From: Eledone cirrhosa
Lineage: Eukaryota
Assembly (NCBI GenBank): GCA_964016885.1
Contig: OZ024740.1
Location: 319,858,001-319,922,000 of the forward strand
DNA: 64,000 nucleotides
Reading direction: 5' to 3'
Both the position numbers and the translations under genes were made by a program. The notes under the pieces were generated by a model. It did no database searches, had not been told where the DNA came from, and worked only from the letters and a program-made list of their open reading frames with translations. Of this stretch, positions 9,705 to 60,190 are shown one piece after another (position 1 is the stretch's first letter; each line of letters starts with the position of its first letter).

Positions 9705-12700
9705 GTCTACCATGGACATTGTGCAGCCTGGTCTCCAAGAAGTGAGGAGGTAAGTGAATTCTTTCCTCTTCATTTCTAACTCTTCCTCACCAACATGGCC
9801 GATATAAAAGTTGGATGTGTGAATGTGCGCGGCTTGGTGATGCCCTGCAAACTCTTAAACGACCTCAGGTCGCACAGTATGGATGTAATTGCTATCTGTG
9901 AGTCCAGGATCCACAGCGAGCGACAGCTGGCTCACATCTACGATGATTATGAGATCTACGTATCTCTATGTCAGCCTGGAGGTGGGGGCGGGGTTGCCGT
10001 TTTGCTGGAAACAACTGGGCCTCGTAACACAGACGGTACATCTGGACCCGGAGGGTCGACTGGTGGTCCTAGACGTTGGCGGTAGTGAAGATGGAGCCTT
10101 CAGGCTGGTGGCCGCATATACCCCATCCAGGACTCCGCGGCCAGACTTCTTCAAACGTCTAGAGACTTTTCTGGGGACGTCCCGCTCCTTGCTTTTAGTG
10201 GGTGACTGGAATGGAATCCTAGATGCACGTTGGGACTATGTGGGAGCATGTTCCGATAAAGGGTGGGGGGGGGGGGGGGTTGTAACAGCCTCAAACAGTT
10301 AATCGGCCGATTTGACCTGGCCGATAGATATCGACTAGATTTTCCGATTGTGTCACTGTGGACGTGGACTAATCTTAGCGGAACATCTAGATCGTACCTA
10401 GATAGGGTTCTAGTTAGAAATAAGGATAGGGACGTGTTAAGATGTCCACAAATGTTCATGGTTTCCTATTCAGATCACAAACTAGTGACCTGCATGGTCA
10501 ACCTTGATAGAACCCATAGACAAGGACCCGGCTACTGGAAGCTGAACTTGTCGTTACCGTCATGCAAAGCCTACAGTAGACGGATTAGCACTTTACTTAA
10601 ACAGCACTTGACATTGTCAACAACAGATGGTGGTACTCTCTCAAGAGGGCAGTTAGATTAGACTCCTTAGTTTTTAGTAAAGAATTAGCGTTAGATAGAA
10701 ATAGGACCGAGAAGGAACTGGTAGATAAAATAGAAGAGGCAATTAGAAGTGGCAACGTAGCCAGCGTGCTAGCAACGAGAACGGCCTTGGACCAGTTCTT
10801 CGACGCAAAGCACGAGGGCTGCGTTGTCAGAAGCAAAATACGTGCTCTGGGTAATGAGGGAGCCAAAGCTGTTAGCTGGGCCCGGATGACGGAGGCGAAA
10901 AGTGGCAACAAGTCCACGATTCGGTCTTTGAAGGACCAGGGGATACGTGATACGTGAGCCGAAGCAGATGTGCGCGGCCTTTCAGCGGCACTTTTCTCAG
11001 CTGTTCGGGCAGGGCGACGCGCCGGGAGGGGCTATGGATTTCGGTCCATACCTCAATGGCCTGCCGCGACTCTCGGACAGCGAAGCGAAGTTCTGCGAAA
11101 GGCCGATTTCAGCCGCTGAGCCAATGCGGCAAGCGCAAATCTCCAGGTCTCGACGATCTATCCTACGAATTTTACGTAGCAATGTCGGACATGTTCTCTG
11201 TTCTCCTGGAAGCGCTCTACTGCAACTGGCAGCAGAACGGGAGAATTCCCAGTTCTGTGACCAGGGGCGTAGTCACGCAAGTCGGCACCTTACTGAAGGA
11301 ATACGAAAGGTTCACAGGAGCGAAGCTGAACCGGGACAAGTCCATCGGTTTGCAACTCGGATCGCGGAGAGGCAAACCGATGTCTTCCGATGGCGTGGAC
11401 GGAAGGACCGGTAAAGCTGCTCGGGGTCTGGTTCGGTCCGGACCTCCAGGTGGAGAAGAACTGGAACGAGGTGACGGCCAAGGTGTTTGCAGAAGTGGGC
11501 CGAGTGCAAACTATCCTTGAAAGGTCGAGCGGGGGTGGCGAACACTTTTATAGCGTCCGTCATCTACTACCGCTTGACCGTCGTGCCTTGTCCAACCAAA
11601 ACGCTCGCCAAAATGGAGCGCGCGCTCTTCCAATTCCTTTGGAAGAAGCGGGCTGCTTTGGTGAGAAGATCCATCTGCTGCCAACACCCTTCCAACGGAG
11701 GGCTGGGGATGCCGTGGCTGACGATACGCAAACACGCGCTCAGACTGCGACATCTCTACGTATTGCTCACTGGACAACCGGTGTGGGCCCCGTTCGTTCG
11801 TGAGGCGAGCCTTCCCACGACTCGTCTCCCTGACCGAGCTGCAGTCCTGGGTCAAGCAAAGACCGAGCAAAATGGGAGACTGGCACATCGAATGTGCTCA
11901 GGCGCTCACAGCCCTCTGGCAGGCGGACCCAGCGATAAGTGGAGACTCCACTTCGTCATTCTATAGAGGATCCGCAGCAAGTGCGACGACGCGCTCGGAG
12001 AAACTCTAGGCGTAGAGGAAGACGAACTGGCCAGTCTGTTCGGTAGGACCTTCCGCCCGGGACCGATGGACAACTTCCAAAAGTCCCTGGTCTGGCAGTG
12101 CTACCGAGGAGCTCTACCAGTTCGAGACAAACTCTACAGACATGGGTGCCCGGGCAGAGACCCTTCGAAAAAGATCTGTGCGAGATGCGTGCGAGACGAA
12201 GAGACCGTCGCGCACGCATTCATACACTGCCCGGGCGTTACAGACCTGTGGGGCTATGTAGAACGACTATTGTCGTGGGTGGGATCAATCCGGTTAACCA
12301 CCGTGTCCACTGTCATGATCAAACCGCCACCCTCCTTCAAAAACGAAGTAGAGGCGGTTTTCCTTTGTGTGATAGCTATGGCGAAAGAGGTTGTATGGTG
12401 GACGAGGTTAAAAGGGCTGAGGTTAGACACCTTTCTCTCCGGCCAACAACTGATTCTTTTTTTCAAATACCACTTTGGAAGAAGAATCAGGATGGAGAGA
12501 GAGGTACTGTACCCCAGCAAGTTTTATGAAAGGTGGGTGAAAGTGGCGAGAATGGCCCGAGTGAATGGGCCTTCTCTCTATATCAGCCTGTAGGTTGAGG
12601 AAAAAGAGGAAGAGAGGAAAGGGGTACAAACACTTCGTACTCCTGGAGATGAGGGTTGCACATTTTCCGGGGGTATGTGTTACCCATATGAAATGTCTCC

Positions 12701-19399: not shown

Positions 19400-19885
19400 A
19401 AATCTGTAAGCTAATTTGCCTCTAGGGGTTATATTGACGAACATTACGCTCTGGTATTTATTGCTATCATACCAGGAGTTGATTTTATTTGCTATATTCT
19501 TAATCCTTTCTATTCTGTTCCAAAATTTGCTCCTATACATGGGTTAAGTCTCATTTGCATCATTTTCTACAATCTTTACCCATTTGATCCCAGCTCCTTT
19601 ATATACCCTGATTTTGTCTCTCTGATTGTAGCCAGAGAACTGCATGTGGTGGATGAAGTGTTGTATGTGTCTCTCTAATTCTTTAGGGTTGCACGTGCTG
19701 GACACGTTCCTCATCACGCTTACTAAGTCCGCAATCAGTATATTGATTTTTATGTGATCCGAAACAGCTGACTTTCTACTTGGAGGTCATGGGTATGGTA
19801 TAATGGGAATGGAGGATTTGCGTTCTATTATTAATAGTTTCCAACCAGTGTTCTGTGTCTAGTACGAGTAATCTATGGTTAGTGG
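19400..19885 (-). mobile_element. Penelope-like RT thumb-region fragment
   Basis: The minus strand reads LLVLDTEHWLE..ILHSHYTIPMTSK..KINILIADLVSVMRNVS..HFIHHMQFSGYNQRDK..PMYRSKFWNR..WYDSNKYQSVMFVNITP, matching the PLE RT C-terminal pattern; stops and frameshifts. Confidence 0.7.
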
Positions 19886-20950
19886 AAAAGCATTGTTGTT
19901 AAAATAAACACGTTGCCCATTCTCAAGGTGAACCGCAAGCTTTTCAATTGCAGGATACTTCTGATGTATTGGAAAACCAATAATCCGCCAGAAGGCCTCG
20001 TTGCTGCTGATGTATCGCCCCACCTGACACTGCGTAACTTCATCGCGGGAGGATTCATTATGAAAGGCGAACATAGCAGCATCTGAGCCCTTGTTGACGT
20101 ACTTGAAGACATACTTGATGGACTTAATGGAATTGCAGAACTCAACATTGATATGGACATTGAATGTCTTAAGGAGGAGTGGACAGTAAGGTACAATCCA
20201 TCTGTTGTCCACCTCAAAGTTACCAACCTTTGCAGTAAACCTCCCATCCTCAGGATTTCTTCTTCGGTATGATGGATACCCGTCATGACCGGTCTGGGTT
20301 TCGAGAATGAACTTTCTGGGGTATCTTTTGGAGCACCCATTGTCCTTCATACATGGGCAGGATAAATTGAAGCCACGCCCACACGGACCATGCTCCATGT
20401 GTGTCTTAACCTGAACGTAGAGTTCCCTATCAGTTGATGGGTCGGGAAATTCTGCCGATATAATTCTGTCGATGTCATTAGATATAATCTTTGTCGTTAA
20501 CCAAATCAAGATGTGTGCATGTAGCAGACCTCTTTTTTGCCATTCAATTGTATACATGTCACAGTTTGTAGGTCCAAATACATGGCCTGTTTTAATAAAG
20601 TACATGAGTTTAATTAATCGAAGCCTAAATACTCTTTCTGTAAGATCATGCCTGTCTTTGGCCTTTTGACCAGGAAAAAGTTCATTCTCGATCTCCGGGT
20701 TGCAAGTAAAAGTAATAAATAAATCCGGCCTGCCATAATGCCGTACATATGTCATGGCGTCGTGCGTTCTTTCATGCATATATCTGGGGTACCCGGTGAC
20801 AGATGAGGGCAGTATGCACACTTGACCTAGGCTTCCCGGATCTGCATCACCGTTGATTCCATCACGGAGGTGGATGTAACTGTCACAACGAAGCTGTTTT
20901 TGATTCAGTCTGATGAAACACAACCTTTCCGACTCCATTTTTGCACACAT
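19859..20950 (-). pseudogene. Helitron Rep (HUH endonuclease) domain ORF fragment
   Basis: PDLFITFTCNP (motif I), EWQKRGLLHAHILIW (HUH), KSIKYVFKYVNKGSD (YxxxY). Confidence 0.95.
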
Positions 20951-23285
20951 GTCAACAGCGAATTGGTTGAAGAGATCTTGTGAACGGTGAAGGTGATTGA
21001 GGGAGGATTCTCAGATCATGAAGCGGAATGCGTAGAAGTCCATACAGGAAACTTTTTTGGTCGGGTGCTCAGCCTGATTGTTAGCCGTACGCTGCGGAAT
21101 GCCAAAATGGTATCCATCTTCACCATTCACAAAGAGCAGTGGATACTGGAGTGCATCGTAGGATCTATGTGTCTCACTGATGTGCTGGAGGGAGTTGTCT
21201 CGGTGTTTGATGACAATGTCCCTTTTGTTGTTCTGGTCACCGTGCAGGACAATGGCTATTTCATTGCACGAGGGTGCATTACAGCGGCCGGCATGGTCCC
21301 CCGACGGTTTCTTGTCAGCATTAATGATAATTTAAAGTCATCCAAAGCCACTGATTCCAAAACACATTTGAAGCTCCTGACATAGCTGTTGTTCCTATGA
21401 AGCATGTCTTGAAGTTGAAATAGGATATCCAAATCAGTATCGTTGGTAATGGTGTGTCGCCTGGTAGCTTGTTGGTGGGAGTTTGCAATGAAGTACACTT
21501 GAAGAAATCGGAGTTCCTCATTTTCCAAAGGATGCAGTGGTCCAATAAGATGGTACACCTGCCCCTGAACCTTGAAAGTAGGCATAAATCCAGCCTCCGT
21601 GATGCGCTGCGCTCCGAAAGAGGTCATCTGGAAGGCGCAATTGTATTGACGGATGTGACGAAGGAAGCCTCGAGACTCCGACGTAGTTCCGGTAAGAAGA
21701 AGCTGCAATGGTTGTGGCGGATCCTAAAGAGGGGGCAAGTGTACTTTACCATTGGAGCAGCACATTGCTGCAGGTTCTGCTGACCATTTTTTGGCCCTAC
21801 AAAACTGACAAGTGGTGGACATGCTGCCGATTGCAATATCAGGATGGTTTGAATAGTTTTCTAATGGGTCATAATTAAATGCCTTCAATGACCATCGTGA
21901 GCGGGAAGGTCTTGAAATACCCTGTACATTTGCTCTGCGGTGAACAATACCCCCCGACTGGGCGGTTTGGTTAGGGGCGGCCTCGAAAATCCGTCCCGCA
22001 GCAGTAGCATCAGCATCTCTGTTTTGAAGATGTTCACCTTGTTGCTCATTCTCTGCATATTGAGCAGCTGCCGTTGCTGCAGCACCATTTGCAAGGCGAA
22101 TTTCACGTTGTTCATCGGTCACAACAGCTCGTGCGGCTGCAGTGGCGGAAACATCTCTGGTTTGGCGAAGTTGGCGTTGTTCGTCATTCTCATTAGCTCG
22201 TACAGCTGATGTTGCGGCAGCATTTCTGTTCAGACGATTTTTGCGTTGTACGCCATTCTCAGCAACTCGTTTTGCTGCAGTTGCTGTGGCATTTCGTGTT
22301 TGGTGACGTAAACGTCATTCCTCATTCTCAGCAACTCGTGCTATGTTTTCTGACTGACTTATTTCATGATCAATCCTTGCCTTCTTCGTCTGATATTTGG
22401 CCGGCTGCCGCCAAATTGAAGGTTTTCTCTTTTTAGGCATTATCTCGCGGAGTACCAAACTGTTGGCCTAAGTGGGGAAAGTAGCAATAACTTGAGAAGT
22501 TTAAACTTAGATGTTATGCATTGAGAACGATAATTTAGAGGTTAGTAATTTAAACGAAAGAAGAAAAGGTTTAAAAGTAGAAGCACACAATATTCGGAGA
22601 TTCGCAATGTCAACTTAAATTGAGAGAACTGCTAATGTGCATCTTACGCCCGCATTAATGTACGGGGAGTAGAAAATTTAATCGTTTTAACTCCTGCGAA
22701 GCATATAGTATTTATTATTGGTATTAATCTACGGTGGGCGTAAGGCAAATATAGATGGTAGTTTGGTAAAATTAACACAGGAATGACATCAACAACGTAC
22801 TAGAAAGCTTCAAAATACTCGTACAGTTGATCGAGTAACGCCGTGCTATCAAACATATTTCTCACAGGAATATGCACGGTATATGTTCAGTCATGTTGAC
22901 TAATGTTAGTTGCGTAGTCCAATTAGAAATCGCGACCTTCAATCGGGCGAATTATTCAAGGTCGTTTATGGCTTAGCTAGCAATTATTGAGTGCATGTCA
23001 GCTTATGTCAGCTAATTGGCTAGCCAATGAGAGGTCGCCTCAATAGCACGTGCCAAATCGGCATAGTACTTCAAACGTTAAAAGGAGCCTAGTATTTTTA
23101 CACAGACAGATACACACACAAAATCGATTTTTCGACGCCAAAACCTGCTCTGGCATATAAGCAACATGTGTGCCAAATTTGGTTGAAATCGGCCTAGTAC
23201 TTCAAAAGTTAAAAGGAGCCTAGTATTTGTACACAGACAGACACACACACACACAGGCAGACCGACTTGCTTTTATATATATAGA
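19885..23285 (-). mobile_element. Helitron 5' half (Rep domain present, helicase absent)
   Basis: 5' end A|TCTATATATATAAAAGC...GTCTGTCTG...CCGATTTCAACCAAATTTGGCACAC. Frameshifted RepHel from MPKR at about 22440, with CQFCRAKKW..CCSNGKV, YNCAFQMTSFGA and FKVQGQVYH. Confidence 0.93.
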
Positions 23286-24545: not shown

Positions 24546-24610
24546 AATGTCATCCATAGTTAAGTTTGATCTATTTTTGGCAAATATGAAGACTTTGTTC
24601 CGGAGTAACT

Positions 24611-25636
24611 ATGGATGACATTAATATTATCACGCACGCTAGACAAACACGACTGGAATTTCAGAAGGAATACTGGACCAGAAATACATATAGTAATCTA
24701 TTCGGTATTACTATGGGCTCTAGTGATTCTGCCCAAATTACCGATCTTGTGGGCCTCTTTCTTCTATTTAACATAAATTCTTCTCCCCCCCCCCCCCTTA
24801 AAGGTGGTTTATATCGTGATGACTGTCTTCTTCTTTCCACTAACCTTAGCCTATCAGAAATTGAAAAAAATAAAAAACTTAGAACTTTCCTCAAAGACTA
24901 TTATAGTCTCACTATTACATTTGAAAACACCAGTAAAATAGTTACTTTCCTAGATATAACTTTAGACTTATCTACGGGTACCTACCAACCTTACCATAAA
25001 CCTAACCAAAACTTACATTACATACACTCACAATCCTATCACCCTAGATCTATCCTTAAAAACCTAGCATATAATATCTCACTCAGAATTTCTAACCTTT
25101 CATCTAACCAGGATGTATTCGATAAAAATGCGCTCTTTTATAACGAAGCTTTAGCTAGAAGCGGCCACAAAAACAAATTAGTCTATATACCATGCACCAA
25201 TAATACTTCAAACATACAACCCAATATTACCAACAAACACCAAATGAAAAACACACACCTAAATGCCACTTACACTACACCCAAAAATACCAACCTAAAA
25301 TTTAATTTCTCTACCTCTTCTCACATAAAATATAATAACTTTCAGAAAACCATTCATCCTAATACTCCAATATACGTTAATAACATTACTAACAAAATTC
25401 CTAATAATCAGACTAAAACACCTAAATCAGTTAATCAAACTAAACCTATATATAATAAATTCACTAATACTAATTCTCTTAGTAAACATCCTGATACATC
25501 GTATAAATATAAAAAACAACATCGAAACCGTAATAGACGAGTTACTTGGTGTAATGCTCCATTTAATCTACAAATTAAAGATAATATCCCTAAAAAATGT
25601 TTACTATCCAGAGAAAAACTTCCCGCCAAACCATAA
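24611..25636 (+). pseudogene. Penelope-like reverse transcriptase fragment, inverted relative to its EN/3' end
   Basis: FGITMGSSDSAQITDLVGLFLL, GGLYRDDCL, TFLDITLDL, YHKPN..YIHSQSYHP, RISNLSS, EALARSGH, VTWCNAPF. Confidence 0.9.
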
Positions 25637-28886: not shown

Positions 28887-28930
28887 ACCGTCCTGATGAA
28901 AGCCAGCCAAGACGGAAATGCATAGACGGT
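28887..28930 (+). ncRNA. Minimal type I hammerhead
   Basis: accgtc-CTGATGA-(weak stem II)-GAAA-tgc-ATA-gacggt; perfect 6-bp stem I; ATGCAT palindrome. Confidence 0.65.
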
Positions 28931-35463: not shown

Positions 35464-35987
35464 ATATATAATATATATATATATATTATAAATATATATT
35501 ATATATATATATATATATAATATATATCCCGTAAGGATGAAAGGCAAAGTTAACCTCGGAGTTCAAATCCCGCCGAGGTTAACTTTGCCTTTCATCCTTA
35601 CGGGGTCGATAAAATAAAGTACCAGTAATGCACTGGGTATTTGCTGGCCTTGTGCCAATAGTCGAAACAATTATATATATATATATATAAGTTGAAATAA
35701 AATGAAAACGAAATTTCATTTCTCACTCTTAGTATGGCACTTACTTAAATGTAAGTATGTATGTATACGTACATACACACATGTATACAGACGTACAGTA
35801 GCATGCATATATATATATATATATACATATATACATACAGGTACACATACATATATGCACGCATCAGTTTAGCGGACGCTTATTATAACGCCGCTTTGTT
35901 CGTTTGTAAACAAACTGAACAGCCTGAATTTATGCCATACGGTGTTAAGGCAACTACGTCACCTTTTTGTTCAACAATGACACAGGA

Positions 35988-36030
35988 ACGATGTACATGT
36001 TTCAAGCTTGTTAACTATCATCAGCACCGT
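35988..36030 (-). ncRNA. Minimal type I hammerhead (also 36461-36503, 36926-36968, 37445-37487, 37924-37966)
   Basis: acggtg-CTGATGA-t-ag(t/c)t(aaca)agct-t-GAAAC-(at/ta)-GTA-catcgt. Confidence 0.85.
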
Positions 36031-36266
36031 ATACCCATCTGCCAGATAGTTGAACGTTCGAAAGTATATACTTTCCTTATGAAAATTAACGGCTGAGCAG
36101 CCTAATTTGCATATTGAGTGAGTTAAATCGGTCAGGCATACCGAAAACGATAAGTTGAAATAAAATGAAAACGAAATTTCATTTCTCACTCTTAGTATGG
36201 CACTTACTTAAATGTAAGTATGTATGTATACGTACATAAATATATGTATACAGACGTACAGTAGCA

Positions 36267-36304
<38 letters not shown>

Positions 36305-36739
36305 TACATACAGGTACACATACATATATGCACGCATCAGTTTAGCGGACGCTTATTATAACGCCGCTTTGTTCGTTTGTAAACAAACTGAACAACCTGA
36401 ATTTATGCCATACGGTGTTAAGGCAACCACGTCACCTTTTTGTTCAACACTGACACAGGAACGATGTACTAGTTTCAAGCTTGTTAGCTATCATCAGCAC
36501 CGTATAACCATCTGCCATATAGTTGAACGTTCGAAAGTATATACTTTCCTTATGAAAATTAACGGCTGAGCAGCCTAATTTGCATATTGAGTGAGTTAAA
36601 TCGGTCAGGCATACCGAAAACGATAAGTTGAAATAAAATGAAAACGAAATTTCATTTCTCACTCTTAGTATGGCACTTACTTAAATGTAAGTATGTATGT
36701 ATACGTACATACACACATGTATACAGACGTACAGTAGCA

Positions 36740-36775
<36 letters not shown>

Positions 36776-37204
36776 CAGGTACACATACATATATGCACGC
36801 ATCAGTTTAGCGGACGCTTATTATAACGCCGCTTTGTTCGTTTGTAAACAAACTGAACAGCCTGAATTTATGCCATACGGTGTTAAGGCAACTACGTCAC
36901 CTTTTTGTTCAACACTGACACAGGAACGATGTACATGTTTCAAGCTTGTTAACTATCATCAGCACCGTATACCCATCTGCCAGATAGTTGAACGTTCGAA
37001 AGTATATACTTTCCTTATGAAAATTAACGGCTGAGCAGCCTAATTTGCATATTGAGTGAGTTAAATCGGTCAGGCATACCGAAAACGATAAGTTGAAATA
37101 AAATGAAAACGAAATTTCATTTCTCACTCTTAGTATGGCACTTACTTAAATGTAAGTATGTATGTATACGTACATAAATATATGTATACAGACGTACAGT
37201 AGCA

Positions 37205-37288
<84 letters not shown>

Positions 37289-37723
37289 TACATACAGGTA
37301 CACATACATATATGCACGCATCAGTTTAGCGGACGCTTATTATAACGCCGCTTTGTTCGTTTGTAAACAAACTGAACAACCTGAATTTATGCCATACGGT
37401 GTTAAGGCAACCACGTCACCTTTTTGTTCAACACTGACACAGGAACGATGTACTAGTTTCAAGCTTGTTAGCTATCATCAGCACCGTATAACCATCTGCC
37501 ATATAGTTGAACGTTCGAAAGTATATACTTTCCTTATGAAAATTAACGGCTGAGCAGCCTAATTTGCATATTGAGTGAGTTAAATCGGTCAGGCATACCG
37601 AAAACGATAAGTTGAAATAAAATGAAAACGAAATTTCATTTCTCACTCTTAGTATGGCACTTACTTAAATGTAAGTATGTATGTATACGTACATACACAC
37701 ATGTATACAGACGTACAGTAGCA

Positions 37724-37773
<50 letters not shown>

Positions 37774-38202
37774 CAGGTACACATACATATATGCACGCAT
37801 CAGTTTAGCGGACGCTTATTATAACGCCGCTTTGTTCGTTTGTAAACAAACTGAACAGCCTGAATTTATGCCATACGGTGTTAAGGCAACCACGTCACCT
37901 TTTTGTTCAACACTGACACAGGAACGATGTACATGTTTCAAGCTTGTTAACTATCATCAGCACCGTATACCCATCTGCCAGATAGTTGAACGTTCGAAAG
38001 TATATACTTTCCTTATGAAAATTAACGGCTGAGCAGCCTAATTTGCATATTGAGTGAGTTAAATCGGTCAGGCATACCGAAAACGATAAGTTGAAATAAA
38101 ATGAAAACGAAATTTCATTTCTCACTCTTAGTATGGCACTTACTTAAATGTAAGTATGTATGTATACGTACATACATATATGTATACAGACGTACAGTAG
38201 CA

Positions 38203-38256
<54 letters not shown>

Positions 38257-38396
38257 TATACATATATACATACAGGTACACATACATATATGCACGCATC
38301 AGTTTAGCGGACGCTTATTATAACGCCGCTTTGTTCGTTTGTAAACAAACTGAACAGCCTGAATTTATGCCATACGGTGTTAAGGCAGATGGGTAT

Positions 38397-38439
38397 ACGG
38401 TGCTGATGATAGCTAACAAGCTTGAAACATGTACATCGT
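38397..38439 (+). ncRNA. Minimal type I hammerhead in the inverted unit
   Basis: acggtgCTGATGAtagctaacaagcttGAAACatGTAcatcgt. Confidence 0.85.
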
Positions 38440-44114: not shown

Positions 44115-44283
44115 TTAATTTGAGAGGTACAGAGTTCGATTCTCTGTAGTGTCTGGTGGTCATTTTTTCTGTCAATAGGGACATTTTGCTCAATTTTCTA
44201 AACTATTGTCTTTTGTTTTCTCTTATTCCGAACTATTCGTCGCATACCACCATGTGTTTGTTTTCTTCCCTCCGTTTTCCCAC

Positions 44284-44387
44284 TGTCCCGATAACTTAAT
44301 TGAGTTATCGCTCGCACTGATTTTAGGTATATAGTCTTTAATGCGCCGAAATACCAACGATAAATCAGAAGACTACTGAAGAGGACA
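44284..44387 (+). ncRNA. Rearranged (non-circularly permuted) hammerhead ribozyme, copy A
   Basis: tgtcc-hairpin-ctcgca-ctgattt-ta-ggtat-A-tagtctt-taa-tgcg-cc-GAAA-tacc-aacgat-aaatcag-aagacta-CTGAAGA-ggaca. Confidence 0.75.
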
Positions 44388-44675
44388 TTTTAACCCTTGT
44401 CTATTTTTATTCATATATATATATATATATCTGAACATCGAATGCTTTTACCCAAAAAGTAGAACTGGTCTACATCATTGGATGCAAAGGAAGTCGCAGG
44501 TTTTATGTTGGAGTGACATTCTCCTAGACAGGTGTCTTAATGAAGACTATAGGAGGTCTCTCACTCCACTGACCCTCTAAAAAATACATTATTGGATGGC
44601 CGTTGACTCTCCTGAGATCCTCCGCCCTTTGACAGGTTTTGTTTTTTATCTCGCAGGGTGTCCAAATCACTCTCC

Positions 44676-50511: not shown

Positions 50512-51404
50512 CGAGGTGGGTCAGAAAAGTTCCAGGACTGATGTCACAAAAGATTCATTTCAAACCCAAACTTCACACTAAGAGTTTTCTCCTTCAAAGT
50601 AATCCCCCTGGAGTCTAATGCACTTTTCCATCCTTTTCTGCCACGCTTGCATGCACTCCTGGAAGGATTCTTCCGGGATCCTCCGCAGTTCCGTCGTCAC
50701 GGCCTTTTTTATGTCGTCCACGTCTTCAAAACGGGTCCCCTCCGGTTCGTACTCAAAGATCCATGACTCATCACCGGTGATGACTGTCCCTAGCAAGTCT
50801 GGTTCGGTTTCAAGACGCTCGAGGATGTCCTGACACAATTGCATGCGTCGACCCTTCTGGTCATCATTCAGCAGTTTTGGCACCATCTTCGCGCAGACTT
50901 TGCGCATGTCCAAATCTTCAGTGAGAATCTTCCAGACGCTGTCCCGATTCATGCCAAGCTCATTTGCCTTCAGTCGAACAGTCAGTCGACGATCGCTACG
51001 CACCATCTGCCTGACGCGCTCAACGTTGACCTCAGTGGTTGTTGAGGACCTTCCGCTCCTGGGGTCATCTTCCACATCCTCGCGTCCTTCTTTAAACCTC
51101 TTGCACCACTCAAAAACACGTGAACGTGACATCGTCTCATCTCCATACACTTGCTGCTGCAATCCCAGTGCTTCTGACGGAGTTCTCAACTTTGTTCGTT
51201 GCTCTGTGCTCATTGCTTGACGACCTGAAACAGAAGACATGTATATAAAATTATGCAGAAAAAAGTTTGATCGCTGCAGAGAGCTAAGATTACAGTTACA
51301 TATTCCAGGGGGATTACTTTGAAGGAGAAAACTCTTAGTGTGAAGTTCGGGTTTGAAATAAATGTTTTGTGACATCAGTCCTGGAACTTTTCTGACACAC
51401 CTCG
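50512..51404 (-). mobile_element. Mariner transposon, internally deleted, with inverted termini of about 100 bp
   Basis: TIR CGAGGTG(G/T)GTCAGAAAAGTTCCAGGACTG, TA flanks; ORF with VYGDETMSRSRVFEWCKRFKEGREDVEDDPRSGR, KMVPKLL, TGDESW and a GDYFEG C-terminus. Confidence 0.95.
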
Positions 51405-51503
51405 TATATATATAAACGTATATATACACATATATAAAATCATATATATATATATACATATATAGAGCACCAATACTAATACCATATATACACACACACA
51501 CGC

Positions 51504-51542
<39 letters not shown>

Positions 51543-51652
51543 AGCATCTATACAAATATACATGTATATACGTTTACATATATATATTTATGTGTGTATG
51601 TGTGTCTGTGTATTTATATATATCTTTTCCTCTCCCGTTCTCACTCACTCAG

Positions 51653-52729: not shown

Positions 52730-53310
52730 GGAAAAGAATGAAACGAAATTTCATTTCTCACTCTTAGTACGGCTGATACTTAAATGTAAGTATGTATGTA
52801 TACGTACATACATATATGTATACAGACGTACAGTAGTATGTATATATACACATACATGCACACACATATATATATATATGTACGTATCGGTTTACTAAGA
52901 GTGAGAAATGAAATTTCGTTTCATTCTTTTCCATTTATCGTTTTCGGTGCGCCTGGCCGACTAACTCACTCGATATGCAAATTAGGCTGCTCAGCCGTTA
53001 ATATGCATAAGGAAAGTATATACTTTCAGACGTTCAATCATCTGGCAGAAAGGTATACGATGCTGACGATAACTAATAAACTTGAAACTAGTACATCGTT
53101 CCTGTGTCAGTGTTGAACAAAAAGGCTACGATGGTTGCCTGAACACTGTACGGCGTAATTCGGGTTGTTTGTTTACAAACAAACCGAACATTATAATAAA
53201 TGTTCTGTAAACCCATACGTACATATATATATATGTGTGAATGTATGTATATATATATACATACTACTGTACGTCTGTATACATATATGTATGTACGTAT
53301 ACATACTTAT
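52725..53310. mobile_element. Fold-back copy of the 35.7-kb HHR family; HHR at 53057-53099 (+)
   Basis: acgatg-CTGACGA-..-GAAAC-ta-GTA-catcgt; inversion at about 52895. Confidence 0.85.
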
Positions 53311-53332
53311 ATATATATATATATATATACAT

Positions 53333-53401
<69 letters not shown>

Positions 53402-53447
53402 AATAATGGAGCTGCGGTGCTGCAAATGGGTTACATATGAAAAAGTT

Positions 53448-53555
53448 TGTCCTCATCAGTGGCCATCCAACCGTCGTAGGCATTTCGTCGCATTAAAGGC
53501 CATATACCTCAGGTTGGTGCGAGCAACGGCTAAAAAAAAAAAAGTCGTTGGGACA
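53448..53555 (-). ncRNA. Rearranged hammerhead ribozyme, copy B
   Basis: tgtcc-hairpin-ctcgca-ccaacc-tg-aggtat-A-tggcc-tttaa-tgcga-c-GAAA-tgcct-acgac-ggttgg-at-ggcca-CTGATGA-ggaca. Confidence 0.78.
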
Positions 53556-53811
53556 CGTAAATAAAGGGGACGCTAGGGTAAACAAACAAAATGGTTTAAG
53601 CAGCAGAAAGTGATGAAGAAGGAAACAAGTCCCAGATTTCTATGAATATAAATTCGGTGGAATCGTGAACGAGAGAATAAAGACCATCAAACCTGGTTGA
53701 AATGTGAGCAAGGAAGGAATTTCGCACAGGTCTAACGGGAGGAAGAAGGGGTCTGGTCTGCGAATTCGGTAAATATAAGTTCTGTGAATATATATATATA
53801 TATATAAACAG

Positions 53812-53846
<35 letters not shown>

Positions 53847-53894
53847 TACATATATATATGCGCATATATATATATATATCATTCTCTTTCCTTC

Positions 53895-53956
<62 letters not shown>

Positions 53957-54100
53957 TACATATATATACATATATATATATATGCATATATACATATATA
54001 TATATATGTATATATATATATCAATCTCTTTCCTTCTAGATCTCACTCTCTCTCTCTCTCTCTCTTTCTCTCTCACACACACACACAAATATATAATATG

Positions 54101-59770: not shown

Positions 59771-59830
59771 AAACATGGGAAGAAAGAGGAAAACTGCGTG
59801 GTTGCACATGGGTTACATATTATAAAATTA

Positions 59831-59933
59831 GTCCCTCATCAGTGATTTGCCAACCATCATTGGTATTTCATCGCATTAAAAATCATATACCTCAGGTTGG
59901 TGCGAGCAATAACTAAAATAAGCTATTGGGACA
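59831..59933 (-). ncRNA. Rearranged hammerhead ribozyme, copy C
   Basis: tgtcc-hairpin-ctcgca-ccaacc-tg-aggtat-A-tgattt-ttaa-tgcga-t-GAAA-tacc-aatgat-ggttgg-c-aaatca-CTGATGA-gggac. Confidence 0.78.
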
Positions 59934-60190
59934 AGTGAATCGTGTAAAGCGAGTGAGACAAGTAAACAACATAGAAGGAAAAGCAAACCGAAGGTAGGAA
60001 AAAAGCAAGCAACATGATGGTTATCCGGTCAGCATAATCTGGGTGAATTTCATGGGCGGTCAGAAAACAGACCATCCGACGTGAATGAGATGTGAGAAAG
60101 AAAGAATCCCACTACTAACGAGGGTGTGCGCTTGCATGTGTGATTTGTATGCATCTGTATGACTGCCTGTTTATTTTTTCATCTATATCT

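Follow-up and report, generated by a model that had tools for sequence, protein, structure and literature searches.

The window analysed here is a 64,000-nucleotide stretch of the Eledone cirrhosa genome (assembly GCA_964016885.1, contig OZ024740.1, forward-strand positions 319,858,001 to 319,922,000), and coordinates are counted from its first letter unless stated otherwise. Between an AT-rich microsatellite at 53223–53398 and an (AT)n tract at 53788–54021 lies a repeat copy on the minus strand (53400–53787), referred to as copy B. Minus-strand positions 53555–53448 of this copy hold a predicted ribozyme with a complete hammerhead core, whose blocks are arranged in the non-circular order S-G-C.

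A hammerhead core in non-circular order

Along the minus strand of copy B the cleavage site is followed by GAAA and then by CUGAUGA, which is the S-G-C order of Eckert et al. 2023 (PMC10085705). Block S (53509–53498) comprises the 3′ strand of stem III (53509–53504), H17, which is A53503 within an AUA triplet, and a strand of stem I (53502–53498). A reduced block G (53487–53478) consists of C11.1 (53487), G12-A13-A14-A15.1 (53486–53483) and the other strand of stem III (53483–53478), while block C (53464–53448) joins the second stem I strand (53464–53460) to CUGAUGA (53459–53453) and to a stem II strand that begins with G10.1 (53452–53448). All positions of the required hammerhead core (C3 U4 G5 A6 N7 G8 A9, G12 A13 A14, A15.1-U16.1 and H17) are present. 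By standard hammerhead numbering, copy B is predicted to be cut between A53503 and U53502 of the minus strand. Hammerhead cleavage yields a 2′,3′-cyclic phosphate and a 5′-OH.

A preliminary description of this locus had proposed a rearranged S-G-C hammerhead on the minus strand, and every feature that it listed could be located: the intact CUGAUGA with G10.1 and C11.1, stem I, the ‘brace’ that we term P0, and the position between AT tracts. A generic S-G-C descriptor matched three places in the 64-kb window and none in 200 dinucleotide shuffles. Besides copy B these are copy A (44226–44408, plus strand; subfamily A) and copy C (59778–60144, minus strand; subfamily C), both with the same fold. 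Copy B had been put forward as the best candidate for activity; this preference was not borne out, since the descriptor is satisfied by copies A and C as well and the CUGAAGA core of copy A is the normal state of its subfamily. Copy B has neither the circularly permuted order nor the Rfam match by which hammerheads of types I, II and III are recognized. Rfam gave no hammerhead at the copy B locus at E≤10 (two unrelated matches were returned), nor any hammerhead over the window among the 150 matches listed out of 258. A faint additional ribozyme likeness at 53116–53149 (E 9.3) was rejected.

Copies of the fold fall into six subfamilies, A to F. In 149 full-length copies, one majority letter is shared by all six at 11 of 11 core positions, 24 of 64 stem columns, 11 of 33 unpaired columns and 10 of 118 flank columns, the flanks aligning poorly. 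The core is thus kept far better than the flanks, and the proposal passes the conservation test that had been set beforehand as a way to refute it. The other 40 stem columns differ among the subfamilies while the core stays identical; departures within families, which we do not count as evidence, amount to 1.8% in the core, 3.4% in stems and 3.7% in loops. Of 41 B copies, 39 have an intact core, as have 122 of the 149 copies overall.

Other repeats lie in the window. To the left of copy B, at about 52790–53330, is a different microsatellite-containing repeat of about 470 bp, with a minimal type I hammerhead of canonical order and palindromic stem III at 53058–53098 (plus strand). Further type I copies of this repeat occur at 36029, 36502, 36967, 37486 and 37965 (minus strand) and at 38398 and 58160 (plus strand), and it forms a tandem array at 35687–38387. 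It has no Rfam hammerhead match and resembles a standard non-LTR retrozyme lying next to the permuted element. At 28888 (plus strand) there is another match resembling a type I hammerhead, whose stem I has 5 bp and whose stem III is short. A decayed reverse-transcriptase-like frame at 24590–25636 (plus strand) has no Pfam match and contains motifs that we take to be Penelope-type. Remnants of a Helitron helicase-like sequence (19859–22314, minus strand), a LINE zf-RVT sequence (9889–12593, plus strand) and a Mariner-like transposase (50578–51573, minus strand) are also present.

Additional helices and a proposed split stem II

The fold was aligned over 21 copies hand-picked from the six subfamilies, which count as six lineages and not as 21 independent events. 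This alignment supports seven helices, including I, III, P0, X, a hairpin H and a distal stem II. Over the seven helices 92.4% of 693 cells are paired and 18 of 33 pairs have changed on both sides; when helix partners are slid as a control, pairing drops to 25–49%. Stem I is 98.1% paired with two-sided changes in four of its five pairs, and P0 (53517–53512 with 53472–53467), which lengthens stem III past an internal loop, is 97.6% paired with five of six pairs changed on both sides. Helix X joins 53522–53518 to 53492–53488 in the linker ahead of GAAA (90.5% paired; one of five pairs with two-sided change, in subfamily F). Hairpin H (53550–53524) is formed by 53550–53544 with 53530–53524 around a loop of 12 U plus A, with 93% of cells paired and two-sided change in three of seven pairs. 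Farther upstream the strand II′ (53555–53551) closes stem II with 53452–53448 at pair probabilities of 0.77–0.95. II′ is fully paired in 104 of 116 parsable copies, against a mean of 77 and a maximum of 85 in 1000 shuffles across copies, and a compensatory change with stem II is seen in subfamily E. GAAAU is invariant in all 21 aligned copies.

Because helix X and distal stem II are additional to the first description, the ribozyme RNA is larger than described there and has its 5′ start at about 53555. The earlier structural model, with G10.1-C11.1 as the whole of stem II, was incomplete in that the distal strand II′ closes this stem. The six pairs that it gave for stem III are present in the window copy, but the sixth forms in only 6 of the 21 aligned copies and the conserved stem has 5 bp. 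Its expanded U-run is likewise genuine in the window copy, at 12 nt, yet measures 7–8 nt in 21 of 30 family-B copies, which marks it as copy-level slippage; in every one of the six subfamilies the loop has a majority length of 8–9 nt, with a variable sequence.

Stems I, II and III covary around the core as in a hammerhead, with stem II made with the upstream strand, and the strand order is II′-H-X-P0-III′-UH-I-X′-(11.1)GAAA-III-P0′-I′-CUGAnGA-II. The majority pair at 10.1-11.1 takes four forms, being G-C, G-C, G-U, A-U, U-A and A-U in subfamilies A to F, respectively; A and B are one base shorter, and their G10.1 can pair with either C11.1 or the upstream strand. Judged from the aligned sequences, block G is split, and a four-way junction brings together helices II, H and X with the G-A pairs of the core, because the stem II strand is contiguous with GAAA for at most one pair. 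In such an arrangement helix X would tie together the ends of stems I and II, replacing the usual loop–loop contact.

In folding calculations the nested scaffold of II, H, P0 and III has pair probabilities of about 0.6–0.95, apart from a single A-C mismatch within H. This scaffold (−22.6) is not the minimum-energy fold (−24.9), the scores covering nested helices and leaving pseudoknots outside them. Free folding of 53430–53570 is unremarkable (z −0.39), as expected, because the fold contains pseudoknots.

A non-coding tandem element and the Naiad retrotransposons

The 388 bp of copy B are a 5′-truncated piece, about 0.6, of a non-coding tandem unit of about 620 bp, and run from unit position ~344 to 625 and then from 1 to ~104, counted from the cut site. 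An element of about 390 bp had been proposed; all 28 other independent loci reach further 5′. The family-B set comprises 29 independent loci including the window copy, with L025 left out as it overlaps L004. At 15 of the 29 a second core lies 610–645 bp away on the same strand. The 3′ end is shared by 29 of 29 insertions, in a set biased towards copies reaching that end by a query that contained it; alignment places it at unit position 118–124, overshooting into the AT tract. In the window copy this fixed end lies at 53410–53395, where the AU-rich sequence about 103–118 nt past the cut merges with the (TA)n target. Four central copies that run onward stop at this position too, but one belonging to a later unit. 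The 5′ ends are spread, with 4 of 29 lying within 12 nt of the cut site, and 8 of the 29 loci have an adjacent inverted 5′ copy.

Dimers or multimers are present in subfamilies A to E, and none was seen in 17 loci of subfamily F. Units measure about 531 bp in A, 506–528 bp in C, 633 bp in D and mostly 562–575 bp in E. As circles, five units are 38–47% paired, with z from −0.9 to −3.6 against 25 shuffles. Outside the ribozyme, the ribozyme-sense strand of subfamilies A to E is 67–70% pyrimidine, with CU-rich blocks in common. At L061–L062 (contig positions about 343586000–343598500) a 3.3-kb tandem duplication, 97–99% identical, contains four subfamily-C copies; its reading as a Penelope-like element (PLE) was rejected in favour of a local duplication. 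First-look searches of the genome gave 2040 candidates for the B query, 1128 for A, 3265 for C, 1850 for F and 2926 for E, which are not copy numbers. Of the 2040 family-B candidates 40 were scored, and these show 97–100% identity across the 388 bp or the greater part of it. The 30 closest copies differ from their majority by 0.57% on average, and the window copy departs from it by two substitutions outside the ribozyme and four extra U.

In the loci examined no protein-like ORF is joined to the ribozyme unit, and the search for copies running into an RT/GIY-YIG ORF, suggested in the preliminary description, found none. Its proposal of a terminal repeat of an autonomous element is therefore not upheld, while its alternative, a non-autonomous (TA)n-associated derivative of a PLE, is supported.

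Naiad PLEs are described as having a (TA)n bias, 5′ truncation, partial tandems and often an inverted 5′ copy (Craig et al. 2021, PMC8557442), features that recur in the Eledone element; unlike the non-coding Eledone unit, they carry an ORF with an N-terminal GIY-YIG domain and RT. The sections of that paper drawn on here report Naiads to be without a canonical hammerhead, take this as a sign that the ribozyme is dispensable, flag some elements as ‘HHR_core’ or ‘HHR_half_core’ (Naiad_Ovul among the latter), and describe cephalopod Naiads as decayed.

On inspection by eye, however, the same fold appears 3′ of the ORF in nine of the published consensus sequences (Naiad_Obim, _Ovul, _Amil, _Aacu, _Anas, -2_Movir, _Plae, _EuTe and -3_Chem), from octopus, corals, jellyfish, a hydrozoan, an acanthocephalan and a clam shrimp. 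Their 3′ UTRs show the order II′-H-X-P0-S-X′-G-P0′-C with complementary strands. In Naiad_Amil, _Plae, _EuTe and -3_Chem, X′ directly abuts GAAA and stem II directly follows the core, so that the junction looks nearly perfect, and the equivalent of helix X in published Naiads has 4–6 bp of unrelated letters. Naiad_Obim and _Ovul have an 8-nt H loop identical to that of subfamilies C and E, again by eye, together with a weak stem II of three pairs plus wobbles; the octopus consensus ends in AT about 75–80 nt after the core, compared with about 60 nt in the Eledone element. Naiad_Esco appears to hold a degenerate version of the fold and Naiad_Bfor a variant. Nematode Naiads (-1/-2/-3_Nbra, Hcon and two unnamed; PMC8557442 File S5) have, by eye, a C-S-G order in the 3′ UTR, a hammerhead type for which the consulted portion of PMC10085705 gives two published sequences. 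The Acropora, Esco, Bfor and nematode entries are named according to file order. The motif places inspected were partial (52 of 62 CTGATGA, 22 of 23 CTGACGA, 15 of 43 CTGAAGA and 15 of 25 CTGAGGA), and the fold is therefore counted in at least 9 of 54 consensus sequences; among the same places, many Naiad consensus sequences had no such motif. In spider and ostracod entries (File S5, parts 17–19) GAAA lies a long way upstream of CTGACGA cores, in different arrangements that may be additional S-G-C variants.

Searches for a Naiad in the Eledone genome gave 48 Naiad-like RT matches and, in a second set, 115; all look decayed, the longest open frame among the 115 being 254 aa, and the remnants resemble octopus Naiads. 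At 41 remnant loci no ribozyme is joined to the ORF, the ribozyme matches there being separate retrozyme insertions. A degenerate Naiad RT pattern had no match, a second pattern had one, a decayed Naiad, and a protein-database search with a 65-aa piece returned no match. A 14-nt motif search gave 7 matches against 11 for a control pattern; three of the seven look by eye like older relatives of the fold, and following one of them uncovered no young family. Loci L121, L122, L125 and L133 hold older relatives of the fold, whose letters match the octopus Naiad ribozyme more closely than do those of subfamilies A to F. At L009 (around 2006, minus strand) a type I hammerhead lies downstream of a PLE-like GIY-YIG frame, inserted at an AT tract that also received a family-B copy.

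Mechanism, alternatives and relation to known ribozymes

We interpret the locus, with a probability of roughly 0.7, as a non-circularly permuted S-G-C hammerhead of the Naiad 3′ UTR type carried by a non-coding, retrozyme-like tandem element. The element would be a Penelope-type passenger, of which the fold, the tandem units and the pattern of ends are observed. The RNA would cut after A53503, and two cuts in a tandem transcript would release a unit of about 620 nt, which might circularize by analogy with retrozymes (PMC7229834). A PLE protein would nick (TA)n DNA, and reverse transcription would start internally, about 105–120 nt 3′ of the cut, as it does in an Anolis PLE, downstream of the hammerhead and at AT-rich nicks (PMC11167929). 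Copying round a circle or along a multimer would then yield 0.6–3.3 units. The modest pairing of Eledone units as circles (only 38–47%) counts against this interpretation, and the failure of eight of nine Xenopus retrozyme dimers to cleave, given in the available part of bioRxiv 10.64898/2026.07.22.740005, counts against the inferred cleavage.

The fold might instead be kept mainly as a site for binding or positioning the PLE protein, cutting weakly, only with protein, or never. Cleavage by the Anolis Poseidon hammerhead is protein-assisted and the hammerhead is dispensable for insertion in vitro (PMC11167929), which argues against assuming that cleavage drives mobility; in Eledone, moreover, insertions end at the 3′ priming site and not at the cut site. 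We nevertheless judge this unlikely, as all 11 core positions, among them the U that precedes a non-G H17, are kept in six subfamilies and, by eye, across phyla, and S-G-C hammerheads cleave in vitro, five of them without protein according to the sections of PMC10085705 used here. That the RNA is a type-SGC hammerhead of the ordinary kind, whose stem II has 1 bp and to which II′, H and X are accessories not needed for cleavage, fits the retention of a 10.1-11.1 pair in four forms and the single two-sided change of helix X within this genome. It is hard to square with full II′ pairing in most copies, or with Naiad_Amil, _Plae, _EuTe and -3_Chem, where, by eye, the base before GAAA appears to pair within X and the one that follows CUGAnGA to pair with the upstream strand, leaving no contiguous stem II; we hold it to be distinctly improbable. 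Minimal PLE hammerheads reportedly cleave as dimers, a result attributed to Lunse in 2017. Assembly of the active form between two tandem units or two molecules would suit the multimeric state of 15 of 29 loci and three mutually crossing helices (X, P0/III and I) that may fold poorly in one chain; stem III is not palindromic, though, each helix finds its partner within about 110 nt, and by reasoning strand swapping between units would leave the crossings in place, so that we give this arrangement very little weight.

A different doubt concerns the mobilizer. The decayed Naiads contrast with the young B copies and count against a Naiad as their carrier. The ribozyme may accordingly have come from a Naiad while its young subfamilies owe their present mobility to some other element that seeks (TA)n, either a C-terminal-EN PLE or one of non-LTR type, or while its tandems grew at the DNA level; we take this possibility seriously, although we think it rather less probable than not. 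Other PLE-like GIY-YIG frames do lie near copies, one of them (L009) with its own type I hammerhead. On the other side, the short arrays (0.65–3.25 units), the single fixed end and the inverted 5′ copies fit retrotransposition and not unequal crossover, and the genome searches score only candidates that share words with the query, so that a divergent live Naiad could be missed.

Under the preferred reading of an S-G-C hammerhead on a retrozyme-like element, the Eledone RNA resembles two known systems and yet fails a defining test of each. With type-SGC hammerheads (HRIMA-1 and variants; PMC10085705) it shares the block order, the full core, crossing stems I and III and an extra helix joining stems I and II. 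As the text and legends of that paper give the layout, the stem II strand is contiguous within the type-SGC block G, whereas in Eledone at most 1 bp is contiguous and the bases 5′ of it pair in X; the type-SGC extra helix also binds other sides of stems I and II. In the Eledone RNA the sequence that precedes I′ forms part of P0, and the sequence that follows the core is paired with II′. A strand lying 5′ of block S closes stem II, and hairpin H, helix X and P0 are added. With metazoan non-LTR retrozymes, as presented in the portions of PMC7229834 and bioRxiv 10.64898/2026.07.22.740005 consulted, the element shares non-coding tandem units with one hammerhead each, a GC content of about 43–45% and a proposed derivation from PLEs. 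Those retrozymes carry type I hammerheads in highly self-paired circles of ~170–400 nt; the Eledone element has a non-circular permutation, units of 506–645 bp that are 67–70% pyrimidine, and modest pairing. The Poseidon PLE of Anolis (Frangieh et al. 2024, PMC11167929) is similar in its hammerhead upstream of an internal RT start and its AT-rich targets, and differs in being autonomous, with a hammerhead of canonical type and a start site lacking target homology, whereas the Eledone 3′ end resembles its (TA)n target.

Type-SGC hammerheads come from metatranscriptomes and, bar one doubtful bacterial case, were not found in genomes of known organisms, as far as the consulted text of PMC10085705 goes; its six-permutation scheme assumes that the three blocks cannot be interrupted. 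Hammerhead variants with extra helices or other permutations were reported earlier (PMC13725137, partly seen and citing other work). The literature searched, from which most subscription journals are absent, held no report of non-circular hammerheads in Naiads or animal genomes and used the term ‘type-SGC’ in one paper only; the accessible part of PMC13282606 makes no mention of ribozymes. A pattern scan gave no viral matches and 19 metagenome matches, of which one passed a loose descriptor and none had evident flanking helices; all 19 were judged to be chance.

Comparison with the published consensus sequences, covered in part, leads us to favour the broader view that many Naiads across phyla carry non-circular hammerheads missed by standard descriptors: a four-block layout with split block G in cnidarians, an acanthocephalan, a crustacean and cephalopods, and a C-S-G layout in nematodes. 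If true, non-circular hammerheads would for the first time be placed in animal genomes, with thousands of copies likely in this one; the ribozyme reported missing from Naiads would be supplied and a new type of retrozyme defined. Such a family would break the assumption of uninterrupted blocks and place non-circular hammerheads in a defined clade of retroelements, and censuses of hammerheads in animal genomes would be overlooking a high-copy class. A construct of about 110 nt with named helices would be directly assayable, and whether all PLEs need a ribozyme would become testable.
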